In this document: one piece after another, positions 27,533 to 54,134 of the stretch
How the letters are laid out: each line of letters starts with the position of its first letter
Position numbering within the stretch: position 1 is the first letter of the stretch
Source: Takakia lepidozioides
Lineage: Eukaryota; Plantae; Bryophyta
NCBI GenBank assembly: GCA_030704615.1
Contig: CM060733.1
Coordinates: 61,256,001-61,320,000, forward strand
Direction: 5' to 3'
DNA length: 64,000 nucleotides
Position numbers and translations under genes: made by a program
The notes under the pieces: model-generated
What the model was told of the DNA's origin: nothing
What the model saw: the letters and a program-made list of their open reading frames with translations, nothing else
Databases searched by the model: none

Positions 27533-30500
27533 TATGCCAGACCAAAGCGGAGATTACCATTGGACAGCTATTGGCTGTGGCACCTTATTGTAGACACAGG
27601 CTGTATCAAGCAATCAATCAAATTGCCCATGTGACAGGGAACACAGACCTGAACAGCAAGGTGACCAGTTATAATGTGAAGCCGGAAGGGCGAGAAGCAG
27701 TCAGGGACTTTGATGATTCTATGTCAGTAATCCAATTGAGAATTGGAAGAACAGAACTAACTGATGTACTGATAGATGGAGGCTTTGGAGTGAATATCAT
27801 GACAGACCAATTAAGGCAGAAGCTTGGTGTAAGTAACATGAAACCAGCCCCATTTACAGTAACAATGGCAGATCAAAGAAGTGTACAGCCATTGGGATTG
27901 ATAAGAGGAGTTAAGATACAGATTCAAAAGATGATCTTTATGATCACAGTAACTGTGTTGAAAATGGATGAAGTCATGGAGGCTTACTCCTTATTATTGG
28001 GACGTCCGTGGCTGAAACAGGCTAGGGTATTCCATGACTGGAATTCCCAGTTACTAACTGTGCATAATGGGATGCACAAGATACAAATTACCACTAAGAA
28101 ATCTAGTAGATTACCTGCTACGAGAAGACCTCAAGGGGTCAGGGAGTATGACTGGAGGGGAGGACTGGATGAGGAGCAAGAAACTACCCTGTTCGCTGCA
28201 CACCCAGAGTGGGAGCAGGTTGTAGAGATGCAGCTGGAAGGCCTAAGTTGTTTAAAAGGTATCTGCTGTGGTGTAGTGACAACAACACCAATTGAAGGTG
28301 AAATAAGCAGTTACCCACCACATTTTTATGAAGAAAGAGAATGAGAAATGGAAATCCTAGAGGAACCAGCCACTGTGAGTTTACAGGATGAAGTGGTAAC
28401 TGGTTGGACAATCACAGCTGATGAGCAGGTGAGAGAAGTGAATGTGGGAACTGAAGAGGAACCGAGGATGGTGAAGGTAGGGGCTGATTTGGAGCCAGAA
28501 TTCTTTGAGGAAGCTAAGAGTTTGTTCATCAAATACAAAGATGTATTTGCTTGGAGCTACGAGGATCTAAAAGGGATACCACCTGAGATCTGTCAGCATA
28601 AGATTGAACTGGAACCAGGGTCAGTACCAATCAAATAGGCAAGGTACAGAATGAATCCCAACTATGCACAGAAGGTTGGAGAAGAGATCAAGAAGTTGGC
28701 TGAGGCTAAGTTTATATACCCGATAGAGTATACAACTTGGTTGTCACCCATTGTAATAGTTCCCAAGAAGAATGGTAAACTGAGAGTTTGTGTGAACTAT
28801 AAGAGGTTGAATGCTTGCACGAAGAAAGATCATTTTTCCTTGCCATTCACAGAAGCGGTATTGGACACTGTGGCAAGCCATGAGATGTACTCATTCATGG
28901 ATGGCTTCAGTGGTTATAATCAAGTGCAAGTGGCAGAAAAAGACCAGGGAAAGACAGCTTTCATCACAGACTGGGGTGCTTATGCATACAAAGTCATGTC
29001 TTTTGGACTTTGTAATGCACCAGCAACCTTTCAAAGAGTGATAAGTGAATCTTTTCATGAGTATCTGGATGATTTCATGTAGGTGTTCTTGGATGATTTC
29101 AGTGTGTACAGCTCTAAGAATGAGCACTTGCATAAATTGGAGTTATGTTTGGCCAGATGCAAGATGAGAGGTCTGGGCCTGAATCCAGAGAAGAGTACTT
29201 TCTGTGTGAACTCAGGGGTGCTTTTGGGACACATTGTGTGTAAGAGGGGACTTCTTGTGGATCCCAGGAAGACAGAGGCCATTAAAGCCTCTCCACCACC
29301 AGTAAATGTTAAGAGTCTAAGGAGATTCCTTGGACAAACTAGTTATTACAGAAGATTTGTCAAAAGGTATGCACAGATAGCAACACCATTGAGCAAGCTT
29401 CTGAAGAAAGATGCAGTGTTTGCATGGACAGCTGAATGTCAACAGGCTTTTGATGAACTTACATTGTCAGTAACAACTACACCTGTGCTGATTAACCCTC
29501 ACTGGCATGTAGTATTTCATGTTCACTGTGATGCCTCAGGAGAAGCGTTGGGAGCGGTGTTAGCCCAAAATGTTACAGGAAATATAGATTCACCTGTGTA
29601 CTATGCTAGCAGGTTGATGAACAGCGCTGAAAGGAACTATAGCACAACTGAAAGAGAAGCACTGGCAATGATTTATGCAGTCAAGAAATTTAGGCATTAC
29701 CTATTGGGAAGAAAGTTTATGTTTAATGTGGTCACCAGGCTCTGATATATCTGGTGAACAAACCTTTGATAAGTGGAAGGATAGCAAGGTGGTTAATAAT
29801 CTTGCACGAGTTTGAGTTTGAAGTTGTTTACAAGCCTGGCCGTTTGCATCTTGTGGCAGATCATTTGTCACGCCTAACAACAGGAGAGCCCGCCATAGGA
29901 GTAGACGACCAATTGCCTGATGCGAGTTTATTCGCAATGGAGGTGCAAGGAAGTGCAGATGAATGGTTAGATGAATGGTCCATTGGAATTTATCAGTGAT
30001 CAGGGAAGTCGCTTCATTAATGAGACCATTGAACAATTGACTAAAGAGTTCATGATTGTGCATAGGAAGAGTACAACGTATTACCCACAGGGTAATGGGC
30101 AGGCAGAGGCTACCAACAAAATACTATGTACTATCTTGGCTAAGATAGTCAATGCAAACAGAACGGATTGGGATACAAAGCTACTGACAGCTTTGTGGTC
30201 ATACAGGACTTCATATAAAGTCACCACTAAGTATACACCATTCCAATTAGTTTATGGTATGGAAGCTTTACTTCCAGTGGAATTCTTGTTACCTACCATG
30301 AGAACGGAATGGGGAAAGAGAATGAAATTGGAAGATTCAATTAAGGTCAAGAAACGTGAATTATACCATGTGGAAGAAGTACGTGCTGATGCAGCCGATA
30401 ACATGACCAGAATTCAGATGAAGAGGAAGGAACAGTTTGATGAAGGCAAATTAAAGACTTTTAAGATGGGAGATTTGGTTCTCTGGTTGCAGAAGAAGGG

Positions 30501-30650
30501 GAAGATTAAAGCTTCTAAGCTTAAATCACCATGGAAAGGACCTTATGTCATACAGAAGATGTATGATAACAACACCGCCATGTTACAAACCATTAACAAA
30601 GAGATGCTGGGAAGAGTCAATGCCAATAAGTTCAAGGGGTACAGTGGTAT
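27499..30650 (+). pseudogene. pol: protease, RT, RNase H, integrase (N-terminal part of integrase deleted near 29970)
   Basis: VLIDGGFGVNIM..LLLGRPWL; MDGFSGYNQV, MSFGLCNAPATFQ, FLDD; VHCDASG, RNYSTTEREAL; ISDQGSRF, YYPQGNGQAE, WKGPY. HHCC and first catalytic Asp missing; in-frame stops. Confidence 0.95.
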
Positions 30651-30796
30651 CCATGACAAACCATTGCAGCACGATTTGCATGTTGAAACGCAAAAGCAGT
30701 CACGGGCTGCGCCAGTGACACCAACGGAGTATGGAGCACTTGTCGCTAAGCCGAGCATATATGACCAGGGCGGGAACTACAGGTGTTCGCATACCT

Positions 30797-31030
30797 ATCA
30801 CAGCCCATCACAGCGTGACACAGTCTATCACAACCCATCACAGCGTGGCACAGCCTATCACAGACCATCACAGCGTGACACAGCCTATCACAGCCCATCA
30901 CAGCGTCACACAACCTATCACAGCCCATCACAACCTATCACAGCCCATCACAACGTCACACAGCCTATCACAGCCTATCACAGTGCCACACAGCCTATCA
31001 CAACTCAACACAGCCTACCAAAGTTACACA
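30797..31030 (+). repeat. 10-bp tandem array (CACAGCCTAT / CACAGCCCAT / CACAGCGTGA)
   Basis: About 23 consecutive degenerate 10-mers after the integrase; same CACAGC core as the LTR arrays. Confidence 0.9.
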
Positions 31031-32049
31031 GTCCATAGGATCAGTGACAGGTGGACGTGGGTTAACATCCGGAGAGTGGCCGGCGGAAAAGTGGACGGAG
31101 GCAGGTTTAGAAATGGACACGTGGACGCCAGGGCGAGACACACAGCCGGACATGAATTGCAAGAACGGGTGTCTCAGTGATTCCAAAGGTGCAGCGGTTG
31201 TCTAGGGAAAACCCCTGGGGGGTGCACTCCAGCCAATATGTACCAGCCACGTGCGTGCACAGGAGGGGGTATTTTAAACCCCCCCATGTACAACATTATA
31301 CATAAATAGGGGGATTTAAAACACGTTAAATATAATGTTACAGGAGGGGGTTGTTGAATTGTAAGGGGTAGTCTAGTGGTAAGGACATCGTTTAGTCCGC
31401 GATGCATGGCGGGATCAAATCGCGGTATCCTTTTTTTTGCTCTCTCTTTTCCCTCCTCTCCTCTCATCTCCTCTCATCTCCTCTCCCCTCCTCTCCCGCG
31501 TTCGTGGGTGGGTGGTCGACCGCAGGGCATGGTATTCTTCTTGATGTTTACAAGGTTCTTGGGAGGGTCAGCTTGGTCTTAGCAAGCCGTGTTTCAATCT
31601 CTGCTTGCTCAGCTGCACTGTGGTGGTTCTCAAAGACCAATCCGACATTACCTTACTACAGCCATCAGCAGCACACAAAAGAGATCATTTTGGGGTTGAT
31701 GGGAGGTCAAATCCTCCATGGGTCACAACACAAGGTCAAGGACAATGTGGTGAGGGCACCTTCTTCTTCGACCTATTTCAGCCTGTTTTTCCCTCTCATC
31801 ACACTCGGCGCCCCTGAATTTGCAGCACGGAGCAGAGCTGACAAAAGTTTTTTAAAGATCCTTCACGATGGTGGGACAACTGCAGTCGCAAGGTGTGGCG
31901 TTTTCTTAAGGTACAATGTGAAGAAGTTTGTCCATCCTGGAAATGCGGGCTCTTGCCTCCTGTTAGTACCATGATTTGGTATTCTTCTAGCCCAGGCCAG
32001 TCACATTCGTTTGTTTTTGCAATGCGTGTGCGATCCTGGCAGCCCTGGA

Positions 32050-32480
32050 AAATGAGGAAGAGGTCCATGGTGGCATCATCAAAGCTGGGATTGTATCAGA
32101 TGTCAATCTGACCAGTGCCATGGTGGACATGTATGCCAAATGCGGGTGCATGAAGGATGCATTAAAGGGGGTGTTGGGCAGTATGGTTGAACGGAATGTG
32201 GTGTCATAGAGCGTGATGGTGGCATGCTATAAGCGCTACAAGGGCAGAGGAGGGAGGCTTTGGAGACCTCTGAGCACATGTACAAGCTTGGCAGCCCTGG
32301 AGATTGGAGAAGAGGTCCACGGTGGCATCGTCAAAGCTGTAGTGATTGTATCAGATGTCATTATGAAAGCTGCCCTGGCGGACATGTATGTCAAATGTGG
32401 GTATGTGTAAGATGCAAAGGGAGTGATGGGCAGCTAAGGGGTTGTGTATGCAATGTGGTGTCATGGAGCATAGTGATGGA
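32050..32480 (+). pseudogene. PLS-class pentatricopeptide repeat (PPR) gene fragments
   Basis: AALEIGEEVHGGIVKA..SDVIMKAALADMYVKCGYV*DAKGV and ..AMVDMYAKCGC.. match the plant PLS PPR L/S consensus (G.EVH..IVK.G..SDV...ALVDMYAKCG..EDA..VF). Confidence 0.85.
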
Positions 32481-32609
32481 GCAAAGGACGCGTTCCCCCC
32501 CTGAGTTTGAATTAAGTCTAGTGCAGAGAGGGTGATTTAGGGGCTGAGCTTTGGCTCAGCCTCAAGATTCAGAAAGTTGGTGCATAGAGTCCATTCAAAT
32601 GGAGTACTG

Positions 32610-34165
32610 TTGGGCAGACATGGAAAAGGGGGGAGAGGTGCATGGTGACATTGTCAAAAGCTGAAATTAATGTACCTTATGTTCTTCTGAATAGTGCCCC
32701 CTGGTGGACAGGTCTGCCAAATGCGGGTGCATAGAGGATGCAAAGGGAGTGTGGGGAAAACCTGGAAAAGGGGGAAGAGGTCCATGGTGACATTGTCAAA
32801 AGCTAGAATTGTACCTTATGTCATCTGAACAGTGCCCTGGTGGACAGGTCTGCCGAATGCGGGTGCGTAGAGGATGCAAATGGAGTGTTGGGCAGACCTG
32901 GAAAATGGGGAAGAGCCATGGTGACATTGTCAGAAGCTGGAATTGTACCTTATGTTATCTGAATAGTGCCCTGGTGGACAGGTCTGCCAAATGCGGGTGC
33001 GTAGAGGATGCAAAGGGAGTGTGGGGCAGACCTGGAAAGGGGGAAGCTGAGGTCCATGGTGACATTGTCAAAAGCTGGAATTGTACATTATGTCATTCTG
33101 AATAGTGCCCTGGTGGACAGGTCTGCCAAATGCGGGTGCGTAGAGGATGCAAAGGGAGTGTGGGGCAGACCTGGAAATGGGGGAAGCTGAGGTCCACGGT
33201 GACATTGTCAAAAGCTGGAGTTGTACCTTATGTCATTCTGAATAGTGCCCTGGTGGACAGGTCTGCCAAATGCGGGTGCGTAGAGGATGCAAAGGGAGTG
33301 TTGGGCAGACCTGGAAAAGGGGGAAGAGGTCCATGGTGACATTGTCAAAAGCTGGAATTGTACCTTATGTCATCCTGAATAGTGCCCTGGTGGACAGGTC
33401 TGCCAAATGCCGGTGCGTAGAGGATGCAAAGGGAGTGTGGGGCAGACCTGGAAAGGGGGAAGCTGAGGTCCATGGTGACATTATCAAAAGCTGGAATTGT
33501 ACATTATGTCATCTGAACAGTGCCCTGGTGGACAGGTCTGCCAAATGCGGGTGCGTAGAGGATGCAAAGGGAGTGTGGGGCAGACCTGGAAATGGGGGAA
33601 GCTGAGGTCCATGGTGACATTGTCAAAAGCTGTAATTGTACCTTATGTCATTCTGAATAGTGCCCTGGTGGACAGGTCTGCCAAATGCGGGTGCGTAGAG
33701 GATGCAAAGGGAGTGTTGGGCAGACCTGGAAAAGGGGGAAGAGGTCCACGGTGACATTGTCAAAAGCTGGAATTGTACCTTATGTCATCCTGAATAGTGC
33801 CCTGGTGGACAGGTCTGCCAAATGCGGGTGCGTAGAGGATGCAAAGGGAGTGTTGGGCAGACCTGGAAAAGGGGGAAGAGGTCCACGGTGACATTGTCAA
33901 AAGCTGGAATTGTACCTTATGTCATCCTGAATAGTGCCCTGGTGGACAGGTCTGCCAAATGCGGGTGCGTAGAGGATGCAAAGGGAGTGTTGGGCAGACC
34001 TGGAAAAGGGGGAAGAGGTCCACGGTGACATTGTCAAAAGCTGGAATTGTACCTTATGTCATCCTGAATAGTGCCCTGGTGGACAGGTCTGCCAAATGCG
34101 GGTGCATAGAGGATGCAAAGGGAGTGTGGGGCAGACCTGGAAAAGGAGGAAGAGGTCCATGGTGG
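32610..34165 (+). repeat. Tandem repeat, 11 copies of a 133-140 bp PPR-derived unit
   Basis: AA(T/C)AGTGCCCTGGTGGACAGGTCTGCC recurs at about 32690, 32828, 32962, 33101, 33241, 33378, 33516, 33656, 33793, 33930, 34067. Confidence 0.95.
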
Positions 34166-35098
34166 AATTGTTGTACTTTGTGTCATTCTGAGAGTCCAAA
34201 TTATCTAGGGAAGGAAAATCACTAAGGGATACATTTCACCCTGTTCTTCTCTCTTATCAGAATTGGCCCTAAAATTCCATGTTGAACTCTGCAATTCCCA
34301 ATGCCCTTTATTACTTAGGCTTTCACTTCCCCAAGCAACTTACATCTGTACCAGCCTTGAGTTCAACACATACTCTTAGTGCTCTTTATCATTAAAGTAT
34401 ACAGAATATACTGGCATGGTTCTGTTCACCAGCCATAGATAAGAGTATACATTGTACCATTTGGTGGTTAATCCAAAGATAACATTATACATCTGAAAAC
34501 CCCAGACTCTTGGAGATAAGATGTCTTGAACAATACATTCTGATTCAGAACTGAAACCATCGTACTATTTAGTATTTAATCAGCATGGTAGGTAGCTTAA
34601 AAACTACTCTATAAGCTGGCTCAACTTATTAGTATTATGGAAGATATGTGGTGTTGGAGAAAAACACAATTACAATGAGCGGAAAGTCTTTGACAATCTT
34701 ATCAAGGGCAAATAGATATCTTTTTAATTAATTTATTGGATTTTATTCTGTTTTTTAATTAATAAACTTGATATAATATAAAAACATACATATACATATT
34801 TGAGGGTATTTTTTAATGATTGAAAAAGAGAATATACATATAGAGGGGGTTTTTTTTTTAAATTATAAATTTTTGTATATGTACAGGAGAGGGTTTTATA
34901 ATCCTCAAAAAGTATGTACAGAGGGGATATAAATTATCCGAGGACCCGTATACAGGGGGTTTTTTTATTAGTCGGCGAACGCACGTGATACGCACATTTT
35001 ATAAAAAGTGCACCCCCCAGGGGAAAACCCTGCTGTGCATGTAATACCCACACCTGTGACGGAGGTACCTGGGGTAGAATATCAAGACACTGCAGCAC

Positions 35099-36582
35099 AT
35101 GTGGCGGATGAGGTGGTTCAGGAAGAAAAATCTGGTGGGGCAATGGCCTGAATGGTTGGTGAGGCATCACACTGTTGAGGATCAAGGAGAACAGCAGCAA
35201 GCTCCCCATGAAGACCCTCAGCAGGCCATGCTTATGAGTTCCATAAGCAGAACACTTAATTTGTTGGGCACTTATGTGAAATCCCATGTTCCATCTACCC
35301 AATTGGCAGCTTTGAGGGAGGAGCTCAGAAAGGAGTTTGAGGCTCGACTTGCTACTGAGTGTGCAAACAAGGTCGATGAGGAGGTCAATCTCAAGTTACA
35401 GCAAGAGTTAGAAGATACAAAAGTTGCTTTGCAGTTGGCTAAGGAACATTTGATTGAAGCACGCCTCGCGTAGGACCAGTTGCACGAAGCACATAAACAA
35501 CAGTTATACCAAATGCAGGTGAAGCATGAGGGCAAGTTGCAAGAAGTGAATGCACTACATACGGAGTTGCAGGCAGTACATGAGAGGATGACCATACAAT
35601 GTGCTACACTCACAACTACTCTTGAGCAAACTGCATTAGAAGTTAACAGACAAGGGGAGAGATGTATGAAGGCAGAGGCAGAGACAGTCGAGCAGGCGAA
35701 ACTCATTGTTGATATGAAGAATACAATCTGTCGCAATGAGAATACTTTCAAGCAATGCAGACAGGTTGAAGCTGACCAAGAGAGGTACATCCTAGAGTTG
35801 CAACAAATGGTCATGGTAAATAGAAATGAACTCTCTGTGGCTAACAAGGCTTGGAAGGAAGCCAATAATCTGGCTGCTGCCTATGCGAGTTTGGTTGAAC
35901 CTCATGCGAAGCGCATGGAGGCTTTACAGCAGCAGTTAGATGTGTACATGCTCACAGAGGAGCAGACTCCTAGGGGTGCCACACACAACTTGGTGCATAA
36001 CTACCTTATGCAGGTCTGGTTAGCACAAGGGCCGGTGGAAGGCAAAGCACCACAGAAGCTCACCCAGGGCAAGATGAATGAGCTCAGATTGTAGGTGCAG
36101 AACATTGCCACAACTACTATAGACAATGTCTATAGTAGAATAGCGGAGCTACAGGAGGATGTAGAAGGCCTGCAAACTCAGGTGGATGACCAGAGTTCAA
36201 ATATTGACAAGAGAGTCTTTGTACCTGAAGAGCAGCTGATGGCTACGTATTTACAAGCCAGAACTTTAATTTTTCAGTCTTCTTTGCAAGGGGTGCAGGA
36301 GATGCCAGTGGTAGAAGGGCCAGTGCTACCAATACCACAACAAGTGACTGTGCAGGTAGCTGACCATGTTGTTACTACAGCCACACCACAGCCTGAGGTA
36401 TGGGGGGATGCTGCTTTTAACCCACCTAAGACTCCTGCTGCACGGGAGTACAGTCGGGCTATGATTATGCCCTTCAACCAAATTCCCATTGTGTTGGATT
36501 TGGCTTGGAAGGAATTTAGTCCTCCGCAGTCGTTGGCACATTACTACCAGATCATGCGCATTTGGCTGCCAGTGGGCAACTA
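35099..36582 (+). pseudogene. Coiled-coil accessory ORF of the outer Gypsy, downstream of pol (interrupted by the nested element; coding-like sequence resumes at 44250-45121)
   Basis: ORFs 35099-35473, 35480-36094 and 36095-36582 are one frame broken by single TAGs; E/Q/L/K-rich heptads. Confidence 0.65.
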
Positions 36583-37288
36583 TGTCGTGCGCATACATAT
36601 CGCTACACAACTACATCGCTGTCCAAAACCACACAACACATGTGCACACCACACACTAGTATACCACTAGTCTACCACTAGTCCAGCCACTAGTCCAACC
36701 ACTAGGCTACAACTAGTCAGTCACTAGGCTGCCACTACGCTGCCCACTATGGCAGTCACTAGTCCACACAATGATAAAGAAGAAGAATACAAGCTCAAGC
36801 TCATGCGAGCTCACAAAGCTTAAGCATAAACTCATGCATATATAACCTCATCACTCAAATACAAGTCAAGCCAAGTGCACCCCACGCCATGGGGAATCCA
36901 CACTACGGCGCCATAGCTAGGCGCGGTGAGGCTCAACTCGAGAAAGATGAGCCTCCCGGGCTTGCCGTGAAGATAACCACTCCAGGGCCTAAATCTGCCT
37001 TGACCTCCGGATTGACACTTGGGCCAATCCCAAATATCAATATGTAAAAGCTAGCTATTTCCTAGCTAGTTTCACACTAGTGGTAAAATAACTTGACAGC
37101 TGTCGTGCGCATACATATCGCTACACAACTACATCGCTGTCCAAAACCACACAACACATGTGCACACCACACACTAGTATACCACTAGTCTACCACTAGT
37201 CCAGCCACTAGTCCAACCACTAGGCTACAACTAGTCAGTCACTAGGCTGCCACTACGCTGCCCACTATGGCAGTCACTAGTCCACACA
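36583..37288 (-). repeat. 3' terminal block A-B-A (A 188 bp twice; B 327 bp)
   Basis: The two A copies read as identical and contain repeated CCACTAG; the B|A junction is the palindrome GACAGCTGTC (37095-37104). Confidence 0.95.
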
Positions 37289-37300
37289 ATCGCCCCCCTA
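37289..37300 (-). promoter_or_regulatory. Polypurine tract
   Basis: Minus strand TAGGGGGGCGAT immediately precedes the TG of repeat A at 37288. Confidence 0.8.
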
Positions 37301-37548
37301 GCTGGTGCTTAGGTCCCTCTAAGTCCAGGTAGCCACAAGATGTGATAGTGACCATAGCCTCACTAAGTCCTCCACCACTATCCCTACTACACTCAAACTC
37401 GATAGATCAAGAGGCCGGGTGCAAGAGTTGCCCCATCGTTAGTCGCCGTCTTGCAACCTGTGAACTTGAGCTTGGGATCTCATGTATTGACTCCTATGAG
37501 CTTGGCCTCCCATGTCTTGTTAGCTGCCTCCAGTCATGTCCACTGCCA

Positions 37549-40524
37549 CTATCCCAAGCAGTGTGGACACAACCAATCTCCGTCAGGAACCTTCTCAAGA
37601 GGTGGTGTCAAGCATCCCATATGCCAACCCCTTGAGCACCGATCACACACCAGCATGGTGGCTGCCCCTTTGGCAGACCCACAGAGCATGCACCTCAAAC
37701 CTGCAGGTACCACTGCCAAGTTTGGGTCAACTCTGCCATCGACATTGGGAAGGTGACATGGCGCACAATTACGCACATGGTCTTTCCAAGTCATGCCATC
37801 CCGACCCTCTAAGATCAGGACCCCTGAGGGCAACACCTCTCGAACCCTCAGAATAACACGCCCTGCAGTAACATCCAGAGTCGTAGGAGCAGTCTGCTGC
37901 AAATAAACATAGTCACCAGGGCTAAACCTCCGAACCCCAGGACGATATCCTCCACCACGTATAGTGGCATACCTCAACGTATCACGGTGCTGTGCAATGG
38001 CAAGGTTCTCAAAAGCCATGGGCATGACTTTCTTGAACAACTCTGCACGCTGATCACATGCACGTACCCACACGTCCGGATCGTCAAGGTTAAGGACTTG
38101 AGCAGTGTCCCTACGAATGGCTGCAGGCAAATCCGGCTCTCGGCCAAAGAGAAGGAAATATGGTGAGAAGGAGGCAAGTGATGCTTGTTTGCTGAACCTG
38201 TAGCCCATGGCTAACCAAGGAACCTGAAGATCCCAATCTCCTAGGTGTCCCTTCTGCAAGCCATACTTGCGCAAACCCCTCTTCACCGTCTGAACAACTC
38301 TCTCTGCTAAGCCATCGGCCTCAGGATGATCCCGAGAAGTGGTGCGGTGGTCTATCAAGGCTTTATCACACAAAGCCTGAAACTCCCCCAAGAACTCTCT
38401 CCCTTGGTCCGTGAGTACCTCAGCTGGAGCACCAAATCGGCTAAGCACACGATCCAAGAATGCATACGCAGCCCCCTCACTAGCCTTGTCAGGCAATGGA
38501 ACCAACTCAATCCACTTGGAGAAGTGCTCCACCATCACCAACACATATCTGTGGTGGCGCATAGTCAGTGGCAACGGTCCTGCGAAGTCAAGACTCCATC
38601 TGTAGCCCAATCCCATGATAGGTAAAGGATGCAACTGTGGTGTAGGGGCGTTGAATGAAGCACGCACCCTGTCACACACCATGCACCTAGCCACAAACTG
38701 TTGCACCTCTGTATGCATACCACGCCACCAATACTGCCCCTGCAGTAAACTGTGAGTGCGTCGCACTCCAAAATGCCCCAACTCCTCATGGGCATGCCGC
38801 ACTAACCGTGCACGCTGTGTGGGGTGAGGCACAATCCTCACCCGACCATCCTCCCACACTCGAAGTAGGTGTATCCCCTCCCACTTGAACCTCTTGGCTC
38901 GTTGCAGGATCCGATCCCTCTCCCTGGCAGTCACAATGGCTGCCGTGTCTCCCGTGCGGAGGTAGTCCAACACAGCCGAATCCTCATGTATATCTCTGGC
39001 ACCACCTAGCTCATCACTAGCCTCAGGGTCCTCAGACACTCCGTCTACAGTCATCCCTGTTGTAGGTCCAATCTGACCTCCCGATGCCAAGATACACAAA
39101 AATGCAGATGCGTGCCATCCCGGCACCATCTCCTCGTCCGTCTCACCATGCCACCGAGCTCCAGTGTCATCCTGCTGGCTCATGCATGGATTGCGACTCA
39201 ATCCATCCGCATCCCGATTGACCAAACCCGGTCGATGCACAACCTGAAAGTCATACTCCTGGAGTATAAGTGCCCACCGTGCAAGCTTCCCCGTAAGCTT
39301 GTCTGACTCCATCAACCACTTGAGTGGCTGGTGATCCGTGACAAGGGTGAAAAGATTGCCGTATAGATAGCACCTGAAGTGTGCCACGGCCCACACTGCA
39401 GCTAAGCACTCTCCCTCATATGAGCTGTACTTAGCCTCTGCAGCGTTGTTCGAGCGGCTAGGGTAAGCCACTACGAACTCTCTTCCCTCATCATCCACCT
39501 GTGTGAGCACCGCTCCAAGCCCCAGCATGCTCCAATCCGTATGCAGCTGAAAGGGACGCCCCCTGATAGGTCGTCTCAAGATAGGCGCCGAGGTCAACCT
39601 CGCCTTGAGCTCTTGAAAAGCTCGTTCCTGCTCATCTTCCCACTGCCACTCCTGGTCCACCTTGGTCAGCTTGGTTAGAGCCTTTGCAATGGTACTAAAT
39701 CCCTTGACAAACCGTCTATAATAGTTTGCCAACCCCATGAAAGCTCGAACTCGGCTCACATCCGTGGGGCGTGGAATTTGTGCAATGGCCTCTATCTTAG
39801 TTTGTTGTACCCCCAATCCTCCAGGATATATCATGTGACCCAGATACTCAATCTGGTTGTGGAAAAACTTGCACTTCCCCGGATGCAACTTCAATCCGTG
39901 CGCTCTCAAGCGCTCCAATACCACCTGAAGGTGTCTCTCATGCTCCTCCATCGTAACACTAAAGATGATGATGTCATCTATGTAGCACCGAGCAAAGTCC
40001 ACCCCTGCTAGAATCCTATCCATGACTCTCTGAAACTCTGCAGGAGCATTCTTAAGCCCAAATGGTAAGAACCGCCACTGATATAGGCAATCCTTGCCAT
40101 GCTCATTGATCCCCCAGAATGTCGTCTTCTGCTTGTCCGCCTCCTTGATTGGCAACTGGTGATATCCGGATCGTAAATCCAAAGTGCTAAAGGCCTTAGC
40201 ATGCCCGATGGCATCAAAGATCTCCTCTGGTGTTGGCATGGCATACTTATCGGACTTGGTCTGACGATTTACAGGCCGGTAATCACCGCACATACGTCTC
40301 TCCGTCCAATTGCCATAGACATCCTTCTTGGCTGGCATCACTGTGGCTGAAGCATACTCTCCACCAGAGAGCTCCACCAAACCTGCCTCCCAGAGATCTT
40401 GAGTCCTCATCTGAATCAAAGACCTCTCCATGTCACTGTATCTATAGGGTCTCCGAAAGATTGGCGTGTCAGTGGCCAACTCAATACGGATCTCTTGACC
40501 CTTCAGTGCTCCCAAGTCCTTCAA
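37549..40524 (-). CDS. RT - RNase H - integrase - PHD finger (991 uninterrupted codons)
   Basis: LDLRSGYHQ, PFGLKNAP, YIDD; LHTDWS, SSYEGECLA, TDHQPL; H..H..C..C, SLDFAG, TDQGREF, DGLAER; C4HC3 PHD CMLC..CDRC...WHMGC..WLCPHC. Confidence 0.96.
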   Translation of the reverse strand: MKDLGALKGQEIRIELATDTPIFRRPYRYSDMERSLIQMRTQDLWEAGLVELSGGEYASATVMPAKKDVYGNWTERRMCGDYRPVNRQTKSDKYAMPTPEEIFDAIGHAKAFSTLDLRSGYHQLPIKEADKQKTTFWGINEHGKDCLYQWRFLPFGLKNAPAEFQRVMDRILAGVDFARCYIDDIIIFSVTMEEHERHLQVVLERLRAHGLKLHPGKCKFFHNQIEYLGHMIYPGGLGVQQTKIEAIAQIPRPTDVSRVRAFMGLANYYRRFVKGFSTIAKALTKLTKVDQEWQWEDEQERAFQELKARLTSAPILRRPIRGRPFQLHTDWSMLGLGAVLTQVDDEGREFVVAYPSRSNNAAEAKYSSYEGECLAAVWAVAHFRCYLYGNLFTLVTDHQPLKWLMESDKLTGKLARWALILQEYDFQVVHRPGLVNRDADGLSRNPCMSQQDDTGARWHGETDEEMVPGWHASAFLCILASGGQIGPTTGMTVDGVSEDPEASDELGGARDIHEDSAVLDYLRTGDTAAIVTARERDRILQRAKRFKWEGIHLLRVWEDGRVRIVPHPTQRARLVRHAHEELGHFGVRRTHSLLQGQYWWRGMHTEVQQFVARCMVCDRVRASFNAPTPQLHPLPIMGLGYRWSLDFAGPLPLTMRHHRYVLVMVEHFSKWIELVPLPDKASEGAAYAFLDRVLSRFGAPAEVLTDQGREFLGEFQALCDKALIDHRTTSRDHPEADGLAERVVQTVKRGLRKYGLQKGHLGDWDLQVPWLAMGYRFSKQASLASFSPYFLLFGREPDLPAAIRRDTAQVLNLDDPDVWVRACDQRAELFKKVMPMAFENLAIAQHRDTLRYATIRGGGYRPGVRRFSPGDYVYLQQTAPTTLDVTAGRVILRVREVLPSGVLILEGRDGMTWKDHVRNCAPCHLPNVDGRVDPNLAVVPAGLRCMLCGSAKGAATMLVCDRCSRGWHMGCLTPPLEKVPDGDWLCPHCLG

Positions 40525-40989
40525 ACTGAAGGCAAAGCAATTCTGTAAGCCCTCAGGAACCGCCGTATACGTCGTCTCTCTCCTCCGGTGACAATGGGTC
40601 CAATGTCAGGCTCCCAATTGTCCTCCGTAACTACAACCTTAAGTCCAGTGGGCTTAGAGGTAGAGGACGCGTCCCGTGGTTGCTATGCTGCAACCTCTTG
40701 AGCAGTACTCCCTACCTGCTCAGTCAATGACAAGGCCTCATCCTGCCCCATCATCTCATCCTTGAGGACCTCCTCAACCCGAGAAGAATCCCCAACCTCA
40801 TCCATCACAGCCGCCTTGGCTGCCAACTCCCTCTGAACCTCAAGCACCTCCCACGTGTGCCATGGATGCATGCACCCCGTGGTCTTCATATGCTCGCCCC
40901 CACTCACTGCCTGTACCGTCTCGGTAGGCAGAGAGACCATTGAGGGAAGTGTATTCCGCACTCTGCGTTGCTCAGCTAGAGCCAAGCTG

Positions 40990-41930
40990 ATAATCCAGGT
41001 CAAGCAATTGAGATCCATTGCTTGCCCCAACACTTGACGACGTGATGCCTCAGAAAGAGACGACACCGCCGTGATACCAGTGGTAAAACCCATTGCCCGC
41101 TCACGCTCGTCAGCATTAGGCTCCACTAACTGCTGCAACTAAGCATCCCACAGGAGGCCAGGTCCACTATCCCGGAAAGCATGCGATCCTGGGAAGCTGA
41201 GCAGTGTAGGTAATGCTGCTCGTGGTTGACCCACCTTGTTGACCACTGCCAAAGGCGAACGGTCATCGTGTCTCACACGTTGAGACTACCTCCCTGTGTC
41301 CAGAATGTTATCCACTGTGAGATGTGCTGGCCGCTGCACCCCATCAAATGCACGCTTGAGCAGTGCGGGTGGCATCATGTTAGTCCACCATAGCCGTGGA
41401 CGATGAGCCCGTGACCCCACTGTAGCTGCATCTAGCAACACTGCTGACCCAAGCCACGACCGGACTTGATGCACACTGGCCATCACCCTGGCCCGAGAAT
41501 CGCCCATCAGTGGCACATTCTCCAAGATGTATGCTGGAGATACAGCTTGATGAAGCTGCAAGTGGCGCAAAACCCGCACCATCTCCCAAAACAGACCCGA
41601 CCTCGAGTCTCGCAATCCATTGCCATGCCCGGCTGATGAATGCCCTTGGCAGGGCCAACCTGCCACTACCAGATCAATGGAGCCAACCCGCTCCAAATCC
41701 TGCGCCCCCAGCAACGAAATGTCTGCTGGCAAGGCCTGCTCATATCCACGAATTGCAGACACCGACAACAACTCAGGGTACCGCTGCACCAACTGAGCAA
41801 CATGGCGAAGTGAAATGCGTCGTGCAGTCTCATCCCTCTCCACATACAGGTAACGCCGAACTCGTACACTTGCCTGTAACACAGCAGCCAATCCGGTGCT
41901 GATCCCGCCAAACAAGTCCAGAAGACAAAT
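40990..41930 (-). pseudogene. DNMT3-like C5 cytosine DNA methyltransferase domain within pol (in-frame TAGs at 41286 and 41139)
   Basis: Motif I LDLFGGISTG, II YVERD, III ADI, IV VAGWPCQGHS, VI YILENV, VIII RAHRPRLWWTN, IX ERAMGF..T, X RRQVLGQAMD, all in one frame and canonical order. Confidence 0.93.
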
Positions 41931-42299
41931 GCCTTCATCCGGAGACTGCCACACAATAGGTGTGGTGTCCAATGGAGACAATTGAGGTGGTCCTGGTGCA
42001 ATCCCCACACTCTCCTCCTCTCCTGACGGTACAAAAGCCTCCACCCAGGCTTGTTGCACCCGTCGATCAGCATCCCGCTGCAAATCCTTGCTCGTACCCC
42101 ACAATGGAGTCTGAGCAACCATGGTAGGCAACTCCGCCATACCATACATGTCATCCTGCTCTCCCGGAGGTGGTACATCCTCTGAATGAGCATTGCCCTC
42201 AAGCAACTCTCTAGGCCAACTCACTACCGCTGTGAATGCTGCTAGTGTCGGCATCTTGCCTCGCTGGGCAACCGCAACTCCTCCTATGAACGTCACAGG

Positions 42300-42505
42300 G
42301 AGCTGCACACGCCGGCCCTCCCCCGACTGCCATGCAGGCCTATAGGAAGCTGACTCCTCCCAAAAATCCAGGGTGAAGCCCATGGGGTACAACACTGCCC
42401 CACCAACCAGGACATCGTATGAGACTGCGTCTGTCACAATGGCCTTGGCTCGCATCACTGAGCCATCTGTAGGGTGATCCGGCCGTAGTCTGATAGCCAA
42501 CTCAT
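42300..42505 (-). pseudogene. C-terminal half of retropepsin protease
   Basis: AIVTDAVSYDVLVGGAVLYPMGFTLDF, in frame with the DNMT; no D-S/T-G motif or gag recognisable upstream. Confidence 0.6.
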
Positions 42506-43922
42506 GCCATTTCTCCAAGGGGTTTAGCCATGCCAAGCTAGGGTTTGTGTCTCTTGGACTCTAGGCTTCTTTCCACCGAGCTATGGTGGCTGTGAGGAAA
42601 TCAGCAAGGTATGCTCTTTCGGCTCCCACACACCACCATAGTAGCCCTAAGCCATGAGGTGGTTGCCACAAACCAAGCCTTCTTTCTCACTTAGCCTCTC
42701 CAAACACGCCACTAAACTCAATGGCAAACAACCAAGCCCTGCTGGTTCCCAACCCTTGTGAGCACTCATTCAAGCACTCTCATTGGCCATAGCATCTGTC
42801 TTAGAGCCTATTCCAGCCCTCTACACCTGTTGCTTCCAGAGTTGCGCTCCCTTCAAGCTTGAAGTTGAAACCCCAACTCACATAGGCCCTACAAGTGCTG
42901 TTCTTTCACTCCAAGTGGAAACCCGCCCTAGACCTTCCGTTCTAGCTCTCTAAAGCTTGAAAACAAGAGCCTCAATGGGCTGAAGGCATGCTCCACACAT
43001 GCCCCACTCTCACCATAAGAGAATCAGCTCCTTTGCTTCATTTCTTGCACCCACAAACCTGAAAGTGCAAGCCTTCATCAGGCTGATAGCATGCTCCACA
43101 CATGCATTGCCCTCACATAAGGGAAGTCAGCCCTTCCCTCTTCCTTGCTTGCCCTCCAAGCTTGAAGATGGAAGCTTCAATGAGCCGAATACATGCTCCA
43201 CACATGCAACCTCTTCACACAAGAGATATCAGCCCCCTATCTTGGCTCCTTGGCTCCTTGATGCTCTCTAAGACAAGACTAAGCACTCCATAGCCTTTGC
43301 CAAGCTCCTGAAACCCTAAGGCTTACATTTCCAGCCACAAGACACTTCTCTTGTGGTGCAAGAGCTCTTCTTCCAAGCTCTGAAACCCTAGGTGCACATT
43401 CCATGGCCTTGCCGCACCTCTTAGCTCCTGTTCCAGCCCTGCTCTTGCCATGACAAGAGCCCTCTCAATGCTGAAGCTTGAGATTCAAACCCAATCTCAC
43501 CATACTCCACAAAGTGCACTGATTTGCCCCAAGCCAAATCAGCCTTTTCGCTTGGTCTTGCAATCCTTCACACAATGAAAGCTCGCATTCCCAAGTCCAG
43601 TTCTCAGCTTTGCCACCAAAGCCACTATAACCTGCTCTTGACTGGTCCTCTTCCCAATCGTGCTTGCTCATGCATGTACACAATCTGAAACCATCAAGGT
43701 GCTCTGGAATTACCTGCAGTATGGTGCTTTCATCTCTGAAGCTGAAGATCGAATGCCAAGGTTTACCACCTCGTAACCCACATCGCCTCCGCTTCTAACA
43801 ACCAAGAGCTCCACGGTGCTCCTTGCATAACAACTTGGTTTCCCTCATTCTCAAGCAAAAACCACAAGTGCTACAACTAACTCGTATCTAGCACTCATAG
43901 ATACGAGCTGATCTTTCTCGAG

Positions 43923-44249
43923 TGATAAAGAAGAAGAATACAAGCTCAAGCTCATGCGAGCTCACAAAGCTGAAGCATAAACTCATGCATATATAACCTC
44001 ATCACTCAAATACAAGTCAAGCCAAGTGCACCCCACGCCATGGGGAATCCACACTACGGCGCCATAGCTAGGCGCGGTGAGGCTCAACTCGAGAAAGATG
44101 AGCCTCCCGCGCTTGCCGTGAAGATAACCACTCCAGGGCCTAAATCTGCCTTGACCCCCGGATTGACACTTGGGCCAATCCCAAATATCAATATGTAAAA
44201 GCTAGCTATTTCCTAGCTAGTTTCACACTAGTGGTAAAATAACTTGACA
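43923..44249 (-). repeat. 5' terminal repeat B (327 bp)
   Basis: Matches 36772-37098 with about 3 substitutions by eye. Confidence 0.95.
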
Positions 44250-45173
44250 ACTAGGACTAAGGTTCTTCCGAACAATCGACCCATTGAGGATCATCACTTT
44301 GCGAGGTACTGGTCTGAAGCAAGTACCATGTTGAAGGAATTAATTGTCTTCCAAGTTGTACATGGGTACATTATACCAAGACCAAGGAGGTAGCAAGTAT
44401 TGTCATGGGCTGTGGATTATACTATGCTGCTTGTTTTCTGGCACGTTATCATATTGAGCAACAGAGGATGCAATCGCGATTTCTGAGTTATTCCAGTGGG
44501 GATCATTGGGTCTTACCTTCAGTGCCACATCATATGTACCTATATGAAGCAAAAATTATGATGCAAAAGGATTCCCAACTTCGTTCATGGTTTCATTCGG
44601 CCTGGAACAATTTGACAACATAGAAATTCGGCCCTGACGATATTTTCTTTAAGGGACATGAGGCATGGAAATACTTGCACTGTTCCCAAGTCATTGGCAC
44701 ACCACTCACCTTTACGGACAAGAAGTTCAGGGTGTTCACCAATTTTGCCATCAAGCGCTTACAGCAAATGGTACAGTTTAAACTTCCAGACATGGTGGGA
44801 CCACATTGTATGCCCCACAGGATTCCAGTTAGAGTTCGACCGTTAAAACACCTCAGGGGGGACGAGGATTCTGATACTACTGTTTCTTCAGCGGACTCTT
44901 TTGACATGGCAGAAGACTATGCACTTCAGATGGCAGAAAAGAAACGACGGGGATCTCCTATGCCTGAGAGGTTACCTCGATATCAGCCAAAGGAGGGTCA
45001 GACATTTCCGGGTAGTGCTCCATCATCTCCGTCAACCAGTGATAAGACTCTGGCTCGCACACGGAGTCCTTCACGAGACTCTCACCGTCAGAAGGGTTGT
45101 TCGATCACAAAGGTTTGCTAATCCTAAACAGTAAACCATGAGGACATGACTTTTTGAGAGATGGAGGGGTAAA

Positions 45174-46224
45174 TGTTAGAGGGCTGCTTGGGACTTTAAC
45201 GCTTTTACGGGTTCTGTGGGGTTCCCTTAATTTTTACACAAACTGAGACCAACAGGAGCCTTAGGGGTGACAGCAGCAGGCTTTAGGGAGGGGGTTACAC
45301 AGCCCGTCACAGCAGGTCACAGCCAACACAGCCCAACACAGCCAGTCACAGTCAGTCACAGCCCGACACAGCCCGTCACAGCTAGTCACAGCCAACACAG
45401 CCCAACACAACCAGTCACAGTCAGTCACAGCCAGTCACAGCCAACACAGCCCGTCACAATCAGTCACAGCCGACACAGCCCGACACAGCCGCCACAGCTT
45501 TGCACAGCCTGACACAGCCCGACACAGCCCGTCACAGCTTCACACAGCCCAACGCAGTTTTGCACAGTTGTCACAGTACAGGGGGAACGGTTAACATGGA
45601 CAGGGAACGACTGTGTGGGAATGACATTTGGAGAGGGAATATGTTACTTCAAGGGTGACGGTTAGTTAGCAAGGCGGTTAGAACAGCTTGTAGGTAGATA
45701 AAACCAAGAGCGGGGACTTTTTGGGGGATCACTTCTTGGATCACTTCTTAGACATTAGGGGAGAAGGTCAGACGGAGGACACGATCTTGGAGCTCAGGGA
45801 TGATGATTACACAGAAGAGGAGATGATGACTTGATGGGGGTTTATTTCATATAGAGCTGTAGTGATACTATAGGGCGGATTAGAGTCACCTTGACATTGG
45901 CCTAGTACCTGATAAATCGTAATCTGATACTTATTCGATACAAGCACACTGTGTAGAGAGACATGAGTGAAGCTGTGGAATGAATGCATGATTAACTGGA
46001 ACTAAGAAGATACTGAAGCAATCTGATGCTTCAATATCAAATAAGGTAAATTGATAACATGAAGGCAAGAAGGAATACAAATGGGAAGCACAACCATGAT
46101 TCACTAGCTGCAGGTCATGACTGATTGTACTGAGCGGGCTGAGTGCTTAGAGATATCCAACTCTTCTATCTTGGAGTTTCCACCTCGGATAGCGAAGGGA
46201 TGGGTGAGTAAAAGCCGCTCGACA
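45174..46224 (+). repeat. 3' LTR of the outer Gypsy (1051 bp)
   Basis: Preceded by PPT GAGAGATGGAGGGGTAAA; TG..CA; longer CACAGC array than the 5' LTR. Confidence 0.96.
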
Positions 46225-50800: not shown

Positions 50801-53800
50801 ACCCCACTCTTCCGAAGTTTCGTTGTGGGGAAAGCAATCGGCATCTCGACTGGTACAATGAGCTTCACCGCATCGTCGCCTCCTGGTGGACCTTTGCTCC
50901 GCAGCACTCCTCAATGGAGTTCACGGCGGAGGAGGCCACCCGTGTTTTGGACAAAGCCACTGAGTATGGAGTGGCGCTTCTGGTAGAGGAGACCGAGCCA
51001 CCGCTTACCGCGTAGTTCTTTCTCATGCATGACCCACGCCCACTGGACATAAGGCACATGGCCATCGCCCACCCAATATTTGGTGTTCGTCTGAAACACT
51101 TAGCGAGCTTGACAGAGAGTGCTTTTCAGGAGATGGCAGATTGTTTCCTCCACCGTCAATGGATGCATTTGGCAATTTCAGGTCTTACACCAAATTAAAA
51201 AAATACCTTCACAATTTGCGGATGGACCTGCTGCACGGAAGCGAAGAGGCTCGGGAAAGTATCACGCAAGACGCCATGATGTGGTTTGTGACTGTGCAGG
51301 AGCGTACGGTTTTGGACATTGCAACAACAAACGACATGCTTTCCAAGTGCTCTGGAGCGGGTTTCCAGCAGAGGACCGTGTTGCAGCTCTGGGAGAGCTT
51401 GACGAGGCCTTCATGGATCGGCTGATGAAAGATATTGGGCTGTGGACCACAGTCCTAGATCATGGTATGTCATCAGACCTAAGAGACCTTGTTAACAGAC
51501 CTTGTCGGTGACCCTGAACGTAGACCTTCTCGCAAACTTTATCCCAGACCATGTGAACCATGACAACCAACAGACGTTGTGAAGTAGACCACGTCAAGCA
51601 GCAAACCCCCATGTATTCTTCCATTTGTTAGCAGACCAGGGATGAGTGCTTTGTTTCTGACAATGTTTGTGACATTGTTGCAGAGTACGACCTGGAAGAC
51701 GAGCTTGTTCGGAATGCTCTTGACCAATACGCCAATGGCGCACGGCAACTTCTAAGAGCCCTCCGTGGCCATATTGGGGTCGAGTCACCCGTTAAATGCA
51801 TGCTCATTAGAGTTCGTACAACAACAGACCCTTCATCTACACAGAACCCAACTCCCATGGAGTCCCAGGAGGACCGCAGCGAGCAGACCCTTCGCAGCAA
51901 AATCCGAAGTACCGACATGCGAACCAGCAGACCTTGTCGATGGAGAACAAGGAACAGCAGACCCCCGACTGGATTGTCAATACTCCCCAGCCAGACAATG
52001 TGGTGGGACACCCAAAGTCCGAGGCCCTTTTTCTCGGATCGTTGGCCAGACTTCGTGAGACTCGTTTGGGTGACAAAAATTTGTACTTGCCAAAACAGAC
52101 TTTCGTGGAGGCATTGCACACCTTACCCGAAATTACCGGGGAGACATTGGTTATGCAGACCTTTCCAGATAACGTCCACCTTCCCAGAGTAGACCGCTGC
52201 GGTGGAAAGCAGACCAGAGCATACCAGACCACACCAGACCACACAAGACCAGACCAGACCGGAGGAGTCCCCACTAGACCAGACCACACCAGACCACACC
52301 AGAGCGAAGGACTCCAGACGAGCCGAGTGCACAACAGACCAGACCCCAGAAGACTAGAGGATACCAGACCAGAGCACACCACACCAGACCATATCAGAGC
52401 ACACCTTTCCCGACTAGTGCAGACCTGATCAAACCTTGCCGGACCAAAGGAGAGAAGATCAGATCTTGCCGGAGGACACCCTGCATGGGACATTGCTTGA
52501 CAACAACACCGCAGAAGTGCATCGCGACGCAGGTATGGGCGCTGACACCTCACCATTCCAACATCAGCAGACCCTGCCAGTGCAAGACATCAGACCATCT
52601 GACATTCATGAAGACCTGGCGGAAAAAACCTAGGAAACGACGCCGATCCTCCCTGGCACTTACGAGTTGCCGAAAATGAGATGAGCAATTCTTTTCCCCC
52701 CCACTGCAACATTTGCTGAGAAGCAGAGAATGGTAGTGGACTTTACCCTTGTCACCAGACCTTCTGACATAGCACAGCCTGAACAGAACCGAGAAGGCAT
52801 CAGTGCTCATTTATCCATAGTACAGACCAATTCTGCAATTGCAACTATGGACTATAACTGTGACAGTTTGGTCTGTGACCTTCCCCATCTGTTAGAGGCA
52901 GGGTCTACAGAAGATGATGATGCATCTTTGGCCATTTTGCCGCTTACTTGTGTGGACCCCGACTCCTCTGTAGACCCACAACTGGCATTAGACCAATCCG
53001 TTGATAGGGTGCTCCTTATGTTCGACTCCACCACTGACAAGGTAGACCCCACAGCAGACCATTCAGCAGACCTTGCCGAAACCCATGCACATGTTTCTGT
53101 CCCTTCTCATTATCTGGATCCAGTCACTATAGTCAAAGATGTACCTGCCACAGGAGTGGCGCAATTGCAGACACCCACAGCGCCCACAAAGGTCAGATTC
53201 CATTGCATTTTTGCAGTCCAAGAGAAACAGGAATCCGAGGCTACAGACCGATTGCTTGAGTTGTGGTGTAGGTTTTATCATAAGGATCTCGATGTCAAGA
53301 CATTTAATGATGTTGCTATCTTGCCGACGTGTGGGTTTGGAGTGTAGTGAAGATTCACTGGAGTGCAGGTCAGGAACGGGTTCGCTCGCAGGTGGAGCAC
53401 GGATTGACAATGCATGGTATGGGCAAGGATCTGAAGACCTGCAAGTACATACTGGTACCAATAGTTGATGGGTAAGTGTCCTGCATTTCGACTGTTTTTC
53501 TGCCCTTTATCATTGGTCCACCATCATTGGTCTGCAGCATTGGTACATGGTCTGCCCAGGTCTACCAGTCTGCTGAATGGGTCTGCCATTTTGATTTGCA
53601 GCTTTTCCCTTGTGCTGATGCGCCCTGCAGTGTGGCAGGTCTCATTGGAGTTTGGTGAATATTGACCGGGTGCTCCGCATGCTCACTCATCTGAACTCAA
53701 TCAAGGAGATGCACAAACCCGTGGAGATACTGCCATGGGCTCGAAATGTGTATGGAGCATGTCTCGGCTTGGAGCCACACACGGCGTCATGGGACGAGGC

Positions 53801-54134
53801 CACTGCATTCAATTGTCATGTCCCTGAAGTGCCGCAACAACCCTTTTCGTGGGAATGTGGCTTTTACGTCATGTCCTTTATCGAGGGGTTCTACGACCAG
53901 TTGAAGGGCGATCATGGCAAAGGACTTAGAGAGAGAGGAAAGTCGTTTACCTCAAAGTGGTTTACATTCTGCAATGCTTGCAGGCAACGCTTAAAGTGTG
54001 TTGAGTACATTTTGAAAGCACTTAGTACTATGGAGAATGTAGTTGTAGAGAGGCAGTTGTCATCTAGGAAGATGTCGGACGTGTCAGACTCTTCCGATGT
54101 CCGGGTTATTTCTTCTAGGCCTGGCAATAAATGA
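47849..54134 (+). pseudogene. MULE accessory gene(s): N-terminal C2H2-like finger, C-terminal Ulp1/C48 SUMO-protease domain
   Basis: FQCPFCPDIVNDKETLNHHV; KYILVPIVDG|(intron)|SHWSLVNID..HLNS; VPQQPFSWECGFYVMSF. Exon structure between these is uncertain. Confidence 0.7.
49595..50527. mobile_element. hAT-type MITE
   Basis: TIR CAGTGTTGTG(T/C)GGGT; degenerate 8-bp TSD GTTTGTAT/GTCTATAT; dense subterminal CCGGGT/ACCCG repeats around an AT-rich core. Confidence 0.85.

Follow-up and report, generated by a model that had tools for sequence, protein, structure and literature searches.

The 64-kb stretch of DNA analysed here (contig CM060733.1; the window) carries on its minus strand a Ty3/gypsy retrotransposon that encodes a protease (PR) remnant, a DNMT3-like C5 methyltransferase (DNMT), a reverse transcriptase (RT), RNase H (RH), an integrase (IN) and a PHD finger. 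The original prediction, made from the sequence alone, had drawn the element at 37549..42536, which is too short: it spans 36583 to 44249. The corresponding empty site, the joint 36575>44248, is present in contigs of 4/4 sequencing runs. In the sense direction of the element, the features are:

36583..44249, minus strand: whole element, a non-autonomous Gypsy-Dnmt3 copy, delimited by its repeats and by the empty site seen in contigs
44250..44253: target-site duplication, 5' side, 4 bp, identical to 36579-36582
43923..44249, minus strand: 5' repeat b, 327 bp, starting TGTCA, with 3 differences from 36772-37098
44087..44099, minus strand: predicted self-primer, 13 nt inside b, complementary to the place of the primer-binding site (PBS); 0/2000 shuffles are as good
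43911..43923, minus strand: predicted PBS of the self-priming type, with its complement inside b
42509..43910, minus strand: 5' leader with three ~103-bp repeats, behind which gag and the protease N-terminus are missing
42285..42508, minus strand: what is left of the C-terminus of an aspartic protease, without the catalytic motif (found by tblastn with the homologue P0004's protease)
40965..41933, minus strand: DNMT3-like C5 cytosine methyltransferase domain, interrupted by private stops at 41288 and 41141 (motifs, Pfam, structure matches)
40677..40685, minus strand: conserved stop and readthrough-type hexamer, TAG CAA CCA, shared with relatives
39829..40540, minus strand: reverse transcriptase (Pfam RVT_1), YIDD at 39984-39973, with a frameshift just upstream near 40542
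39253..39642, minus strand: RNase H (Pfam RT_RNaseH, E 1e-34)
38290..38823, minus strand: DDE integrase, H2C2 zinc finger and core (Pfam zf-H2C2, rve)
37549..37692, minus strand: C-terminal PHD finger and stop (Pfam PHD, E 2e-10)
37291..37303, minus strand: polypurine tract (PPT), directly before repeat a; the same tract is present in relatives
37101..37290, minus strand: 3' repeat a, first copy, 190 bp, ending CGACA, with 0 differences from 36583-36772
37094..37105: internal junction a-GC-b, the palindrome GACAGCTGTC, resembling a head-to-head att junction (from sequence)
36772..37098, minus strand: 3' repeat b, second copy (repeat comparison)
36583..36772, minus strand: 3' repeat a, second copy, the end of the element (repeat comparison)
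36579..36582: target-site duplication, 3' side, 4 bp, identical to the 5' side copy

The PR-RT-RH-IN order with a DDE integrase, the TG...CA termini, the short target duplication, the PPT and the PBS are those of a Ty3/gypsy element. Two identical direct long terminal repeats (LTRs) do not flank it; instead, the repeats are split as b...a-GC-b-a. A chromovirus was rejected because the C-terminus of the integrase bears a PHD finger and no chromodomain, and a DIRS-class (tyrosine recombinase) element because the window encodes an rve integrase and neither open reading frame (ORF) of the relative L035 contains a recombinase family. By domain content and repeat layout, the element belongs to the Gypsy-Dnmt3 family known from Klebsormidium. 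The solved PHD fingers nearest to that of the window are those of CHD4, KDM5A/B, PHF12 and ATXR5.

The copy in the window is dead and cannot make the methyltransferase: gag is deleted together with the protease active site, two private stops interrupt the DNMT domain, and the frame shifts by one base near 40542. No match to gag was found in the window; relatives do have gag. Loose ends lie at 42508, the boundary between leader and protease remnant, and the protease of L035 matches Pfam Asp_protease_2 at E 2e-4, below the cut-off. The stops at 41288 and 41141 are private: when the depths of contigs of the same organism are added up, 99.7-100% have a different letter at these positions. A third in-frame stop, at 40685-40683, is a feature of the family and not a sign of decay. 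The predicted polyprotein with an embedded methyltransferase is confirmed, with a complete motif set, but its reading frame is broken by the stops and the frameshift, and it lacks gag and the half of the protease that bears the catalytic site.

In two DNA runs of the same organism, 2,933 and 3,686 contigs cover a 1.4-kb methyltransferase stretch; at ~3,000 contigs per run, the family to which the domain belongs has a high copy number in this genome. The window itself may derive from these runs, which therefore do not independently support its presence, and the summed contig depth of ~1e5, compared with 25-60 for single contigs, is not a copy number. Pieces of the element in two further runs, guessed to be RNA, say nothing on expression. 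The terminal repeats differ at 3/517 bases, yet over 1.4 kb of the interior there are ~40 differences from most copies, 27/41 of them in the C-to-T/G-to-A direction. This contrast suggests a recent insertion from an already decayed template. CHG context was found at 11/22 hand-picked, and hence biased, difference places against a background of 20%, and the CpG observed/expected ratio of the element, 0.54, is not distinctive.

The methyltransferase motifs lie on the minus strand in canonical order and in the same frame as the protease remnant, as the original prediction had claimed. By sequence, they are:

41918-41898, minus strand: motif I, DLFGGIS
41846, minus strand: motif II, YVERD
41660-41643, minus strand: motif IV, GWPCQG
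41528, minus strand: motif VI, ILENV
41408-41379, minus strand: motif VIII, AHRPRLWWTN
41108, minus strand: motif IX, ERERAMGF
41030-41010, minus strand: motif X, LGQAMDL

Pfam DNA_methylase matches the domain at E 5e-13, above the curated cut-off. Among solved structures, the window sequence alone found DNMT3A best (7e-9), then DRM2 (2e-4) and HhaI (3e-4); a family profile gave DNMT3A 9e-23, DRM 3e-15 and HhaI 7e-8. A permuted DRM, in which motifs VI-X precede I-V, was rejected: the order in the window is canonical, and DRM chains match the family profile in two stretches. The predicted structure of the unbroken natural domain of a relative, L009 (pLDDT 88), matched DNMT3A/B/C in Foldseek. 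In VIA-align it was closest to DNMT3B (Z 28.7, rmsd 2.6, 271 aligned) and DNMT3A (Z 27.5), with HhaI (22.8), DNMT1 (19.1), DNMT2 and CMT behind; no DRM is among the 50 rows of that comparison. By sequence, profile and modelled fold, the domain is a DNMT3-like, unpermuted C5 methyltransferase, which agrees with the original assignment.

The catalytic Cys, the Glu of ENV and RxR are invariant in 16/16 aligned domains at 31-65% identity, and the element-borne domain is intronless. Absence of the domain from other copies, or its neutral evolution, had been named as grounds for giving up the prediction, and neither was observed: the domain is present across the family and conserved, and dN/dS was 0.07-0.17 in the 4 measurable between-family pairs (13 pairs examined). 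Another 5/13 pairs were saturated; in the domain, the window is still 69-72% identical to its three nearest relatives, vs 38-39% in the linker. Judged from these alignments, the DNMT domain is under purifying selection between families, and in intact form it is likely to be an active DNA methyltransferase.

The idea that the DNMT is simply a Pol domain needs change, because the DNMT ends ORF1 (Gag-PR-DNMT) and a conserved in-frame TAG/TAA of the readthrough type separates it from RT-RH-IN-PHD. Between motif X and RT the window reads TAG CAA CCA, that is, an in-frame UAG followed by CARYYA, the type I readthrough context. Many homologous ORFs stop 80-165 residues past motif X. In L035, 1369 codons of Gag-PR-DNMT are followed by a single TAG CAG TTA and then by 1047 codons of RT-RH-IN-PHD; a 1047-codon ORF2 is common to L035, L098 and L036.

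We surveyed the stop in 68 sequences, the window and 67 loci, of which 27 lack the start of ORF2 and 41 contain it. TAG/TAA followed by CAR-YYN is present in 33/41. Nine of these 33 (the window and 8 others, from 5 distinct families) have the strict CARYYA, and the other 24, all from one Sphagnum-like family, have CAACCC or CAACCT. The remaining 8/41 comprise 2 stops with a decayed hexamer, 1 stop at another position and 5 sequences with no stop, two of which (L044, L051) have another architecture or lack the junction and three of which (L041-L043) are heavily decayed. The linker around the stop is only 21-55% identical between families, and the YYA of the hexamer is kept though the encoded residue varies (P, L, S); at even base use, a strict hexamer would arise by chance once in 512. 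The contig X5 retains stop and hexamer, and 29/29 of its differences lie elsewhere.

CARYYA promotes readthrough in tobacco mosaic virus (TMV) and other plant viruses (PMC4132726), and the TMV context gives 6-32% readthrough in plants (PMC2754532). We hold with considerable confidence, from this conserved context, that readthrough would set the ORF1:ORF2 ratio; the methyltransferase would then be as abundant as Gag and exceed RT and integrase at least several-fold. The original interpretation is partly supported: the unpermuted DNMT3-like domain and the land-plant host hold, the enzyme is not simply made as a Pol domain with RT and integrase, and methylation of the cDNA or of the insertion site is a prediction.

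Read in the sense direction, the parts follow each other as b - PBS - internal - PPT - a - GC - b - a. The full a-GC-b-a is found at 4 distinct loci (the window, L025, L026 and L041/43) and an exact 4-bp target duplication at 5 (the window, L010, L026, L031 and L037). The a-b junction is a palindrome, GACA-NN-TGTC, whose halves are the integrated termini of the element; it is also present in L035, L036, L098, L047, L049, L050, L054 and L060 and is conserved even in a distant clade. With the PPT before a and the PBS after b, the cDNA is expected to have LTRs of the form a-GC-b and therefore ends without the conserved termini. Relative to this expected cDNA, the integrated form is circularly permuted, with the cut at the internal junction. 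Integrase of foamy virus is described as cutting a palindromic LTR-LTR junction (PMC1180852). It is moderately probable, given this arrangement, that a-GC-b is the working LTR, that cDNA ends become joined and that the integrase cuts and integrates at GACA-NN-TGTC, producing the permuted ends.

A short form that ends after the first a repeat was seen in L015, L016, L031 and L037, with the 4-bp duplication retained in L031 and L037; it could be a product of a-a recombination or of a one-LTR circle. Terminal overlaps of 127-204 bases in L054, L058, L060 and L098 were considered as evidence for circles and set aside as collapsed repeats.

Alternatively, a templated route like that of DIRS/PAT elements, with the RNA extending into the second a, may regenerate the split ends, without two-LTR cDNA being joined and re-cut. 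Split direct repeats of this layout are those of DIRS-class elements, a likeness noted for Klebsormidium (PMC5890265), and the b-a join is precise in the window, L025 and L026. The mirror form b-a-GC-b...a, which a circle with two equal junctions should also yield, occurs in 0/13 distinct 5' ends; therefore, either the cut is biased or the b-a join is templated. Yet the element encodes no tyrosine recombinase, the PPT before a and the PBS after b predict a conventional a-GC-b LTR, and the target duplications are of the integrase type, so that we regard the templated route as possible but doubtful and retain joining and cutting at the palindrome.

At the PBS place, the 13-nt complement inside b is perfect in the window. 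Relatives have complements of other sequences, 17 nt long in L019/L026, 16 nt in L035 and 13 nt in L098. The complement was significant in 7/12 loci tested, and two further families also have one, of different sequence. By these complementarities, reverse transcription is likely to be self-primed, as in Tf1.

The host was placed by a gene elsewhere in the window:

11757-16062, minus strand: multi-exon KH-domain (HEN4/RCF3-like) host gene, used for host placement

This gene groups with Physcomitrium and Ceratodon (SH-aLRT 99), so the host is a moss-like land plant, which bears out the predicted land-plant occurrence. The host row includes some intron translation, which lengthens its branch, and all trees are quick ones (FastTree or short IQ-TREE). 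Named homologues among 66 matches come from Marchantia (21/66), Calypogeia, Sphagnum, Closterium and Klebsormidium, whose KFL_009030040 (P0060) is homologous to the window element. No vascular-plant or hornwort name appeared among 66 and 57 matches in word-limited searches, which is no proof of absence. In the DNMT tree as in the RT tree, Marchantia and Sphagnum-type elements are the ones with which the window groups (99 and 99). The RT tree (FastTree, unrooted, one outgroup row) splits elements with DNMT before RT from those with DNMT after RNase H (99); in the DNMT tree, which contains no plant host DNMT3, the sole animal DNMT3A row joins as a flagged long branch. Scans of IMG/VR and GTDB returned only distant phage or bacterial methyltransferases and one element contig in a cyanobacterial bin (L098), with no prokaryotic donor seen.

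L098 lies in a Synechococcales assembly and the protein P0028 is labelled Obscuribacterales; such element sequences in bacterial bins are most likely plant or algal contamination. Marchantia and Sphagnum-type elements (P0004, P0007, L003, L026) share ~80% RT identity and are closer to each other than to the moss element of the window; horizontal transfer among bryophytes or paralogous lineages may account for this. A profile of the DNMT found 534 clusters at 50% identity with E<=1e-30, of which the best 150 were viewed. In a large sister clade, the same DNMT lies between RNase H and integrase in 115/242 proteins, and the junction palindrome is shared (L047-L052, L054; P0244 among others). A single branch sets this clade apart in the two trees (88, 99), and 1/10 of its clusters looked up named Scenedesmus sp. 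PABB004; no description of its arrangement was found in the literature. One protein, P0215, combines a DNMT of this kind with Pfam PF05869, which we take to be an adenine methyltransferase family, and is a candidate dual methyltransferase.

With the anatomy read directly from the DNA, and readthrough, activity, substrate and integration route deduced from that sequence, we lean on balance towards the following reading: the window holds a decayed Gypsy-Dnmt3 copy in a moss-like genome, and the DNMT of its relatives would be packaged at capsid level via a leaky stop, probably to methylate their own new cDNA. Intact relatives would make abundant Gag-PR-DNMT and a readthrough product carrying RT-RH-IN-PHD. 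Reverse transcription would be self-primed from the PBS complement inside b, the new cDNA would be methylated in or near the particle, and integration would start at the internal junction, with guidance from a PHD finger similar to those of the CHD4/KDM5 type. There is about an even chance that the enzyme acts mainly on cDNA or circles of the element itself. More tentatively, an ancient green-lineage group of Ty3/gypsy elements might integrate via an att-att junction inside the LTR; bryophyte particles would be loaded with Gag-level DNMT3 by readthrough, copies would arrive pre-methylated, and CG methylation of the junction would possibly choose the cut site of the integrase.

Besides the missing mirror form, several findings weigh against this reading. 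In 4 close DNMT pairs dN/dS is 0.49-0.94, as expected of post-insertion decay, yet this lends no support, and the values for RT, 0.04-0.05, make the DNMT less constrained than RT. The Klebsormidium domain, the sole Gypsy-type domain assayed, gave no methylation of yeast DNA, an inconclusive result as DNMT3B also failed (PMC5890265). The self-priming complement is at chance level or absent in 5/12 loci tested. The largest family has CAACCC, not the strict CARYYA, and TAA in 7 of its copies. Klebsormidium, Closterium and P0052-type proteins, two of them gene models, continue from DNMT into RT without a stop; together with the sister clade, which has the DNMT inside Pol, they imply that Gag-level supply is not required family-wide.

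An active enzyme might instead act on host chromatin, travelling with integrase and PHD finger and methylating the insertion site or other host DNA in trans. The PHD finger is nearest to CHD4/KDM5/PHF21A/UHRF1-type fingers, which read unmethylated H3K4, like the ADD domain of animal DNMT3, and sister-clade proteins have the DNMT fused to the front of the integrase. In the clade of the window, however, the stop groups the DNMT with Gag and apart from the integrase, and the Klebsormidium methylome looks ordinary (PMC5890265); we consider host chromatin an unlikely main target and keep to cDNA.

Splicing that removes the stop, or a separate transcript for ORF2, could also take the place of readthrough. 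Ogre elements splice out a stop, and several Marchantia gene models skip the junction (P0007, P0014, P0023). Some plant families do have Gag-PR in a first ORF of its own (PMC6317226). Against this stand the single in-frame stop with a hexamer conserved at the nucleotide level and the lack of a Met before RT in L035 and L098, in which the first Met of ORF2 is 117 residues into RT; moreover, the sole contig that crosses the junction in a run guessed to be RNA is unspliced, although it may be DNA. Splicing or a separate transcript is thus quite improbable, and readthrough is preferred.

A similarly small chance attaches to the domain being kept for nucleic-acid binding or RNA methylation, not DNA methylation. 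The negative yeast assay of the algal member (PMC5890265) and abundance at Gag level, which would suit a structural role, fit this idea, but all catalytic motifs are invariant, fold and sequence are nearer to DNMT3 than to DNMT2, and DIRS-borne Dnmt3 domains are reported to methylate CG in the same paper. Finally, the broken window copy might bring to mind a host gene fragment captured once, or an error of assembly. The contig counts and the same architecture, with an intronless domain, in other bryophytes and algae refute this, and its probability is negligible.

The element is nested in an older gypsy element at 23620-46224 (LTRs ~23620-24603 and 45174-46224, 94.5% alike; gag-pol 25280-31038), whose extra 3' coiled-coil-like ORF region it interrupts (35078-36578, 44254-45121). 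Inside the outer element, ~11 tandem 137-bp repeats at 32000-34200 look by eye like degenerate PPR-gene sequence. The window also holds a Copia-type RT remnant (3461-4756), an Ulp1 protease fragment (53619-54134) and DUF4218 transposase-like remnants (55263-58850).

The role of transposon-borne methyltransferases is a question left unresolved by de Mendoza et al. (PMC5890265), and so far the only known source of the Gypsy type was an alga lacking genetics. In Marchantia polymorpha, a genetic model, relatives carry annotations as hypothetical genes, and the question therefore becomes testable. The position of the stop predicts the abundance of the enzyme, the ends point to an integration substrate that is unusual for a DDE integrase, and the genes of such elements would be miscounted as host DNMTs in surveys of bryophyte genomes. 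In print, the land-plant occurrence is new as far as our literature search reaches; the expression strategy is a variant one, and the end structure is unusual. De Mendoza et al. (2018) describe Gypsy elements with unpermuted Dnmt3 and DIRS-like repeats from Klebsormidium only, and Marchantia is not named in the portions seen of the text and three text supplements (PMC5890265). The family in land plants, or the readthrough stop, was not found described; PMC12344493 and bioRxiv 10.64898/2026.05.21.726589 cite the Gypsy-Dnmt3 family as 'streptophyte' in the parts seen, and their supplementary trees may include bryophyte copies.

KnitGypsy-Dnmt3 of Klebsormidium nitens, as presented in the sections seen of PMC5890265, shares with the window element the Gypsy domains, an intronless unpermuted Dnmt3-like domain before RT, purifying selection and DIRS-like terminal repeats. 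It differs in that the host of the window element is a land plant and a readthrough-type stop puts the DNMT in ORF1, not in an uninterrupted Pol ORF; the att-like junction, self-priming and the PHD finger are not mentioned for it in those sections. SymbioDIRS-Dnmt3, which methylates CG de novo (PMC5890265), SymbioLINE-Dnmt and EpiLTRs are likewise retrotransposons with a C5 methyltransferase but represent other element classes or DNMT clades and independent captures (PMC5890265; bioRxiv 10.64898/2026.05.21.726589; both seen in part). Host bryophyte DNMT3 (PpDNMT3b, CHH methylation; PMC6453930) has the same unpermuted DNMT3-type catalytic domain; host-type DNMT3 is a multi-exon gene (in Klebsormidium, PMC5890265), whereas that of the element is intronless and inside a polyprotein. 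Tf1/Sushi and Tcn1 also have a PBS complementary to their own 5' repeat but carry chromodomains, according to the seen part of PMC6317226, whereas the window element has a PHD finger and split ends. The type I leaky stop of TMV and BNYVV, UAG-CARYYA, has the same stop and 3' hexamer (PMC4132726, PMC2754532). In the window, the stop sits between methyltransferase and RT of a retrotransposon, and its readthrough is predicted from sequence. REM1 is an algal Ty3/gypsy element with a PHD finger, and the REM1 paper may already describe similar ends. Gypsy-7a_cRei, compared by description and without a tree, is another algal Ty3/gypsy element with a PHD finger, but has near-conventional LTRs and no methyltransferase listed in the part of PMC9940879 seen.

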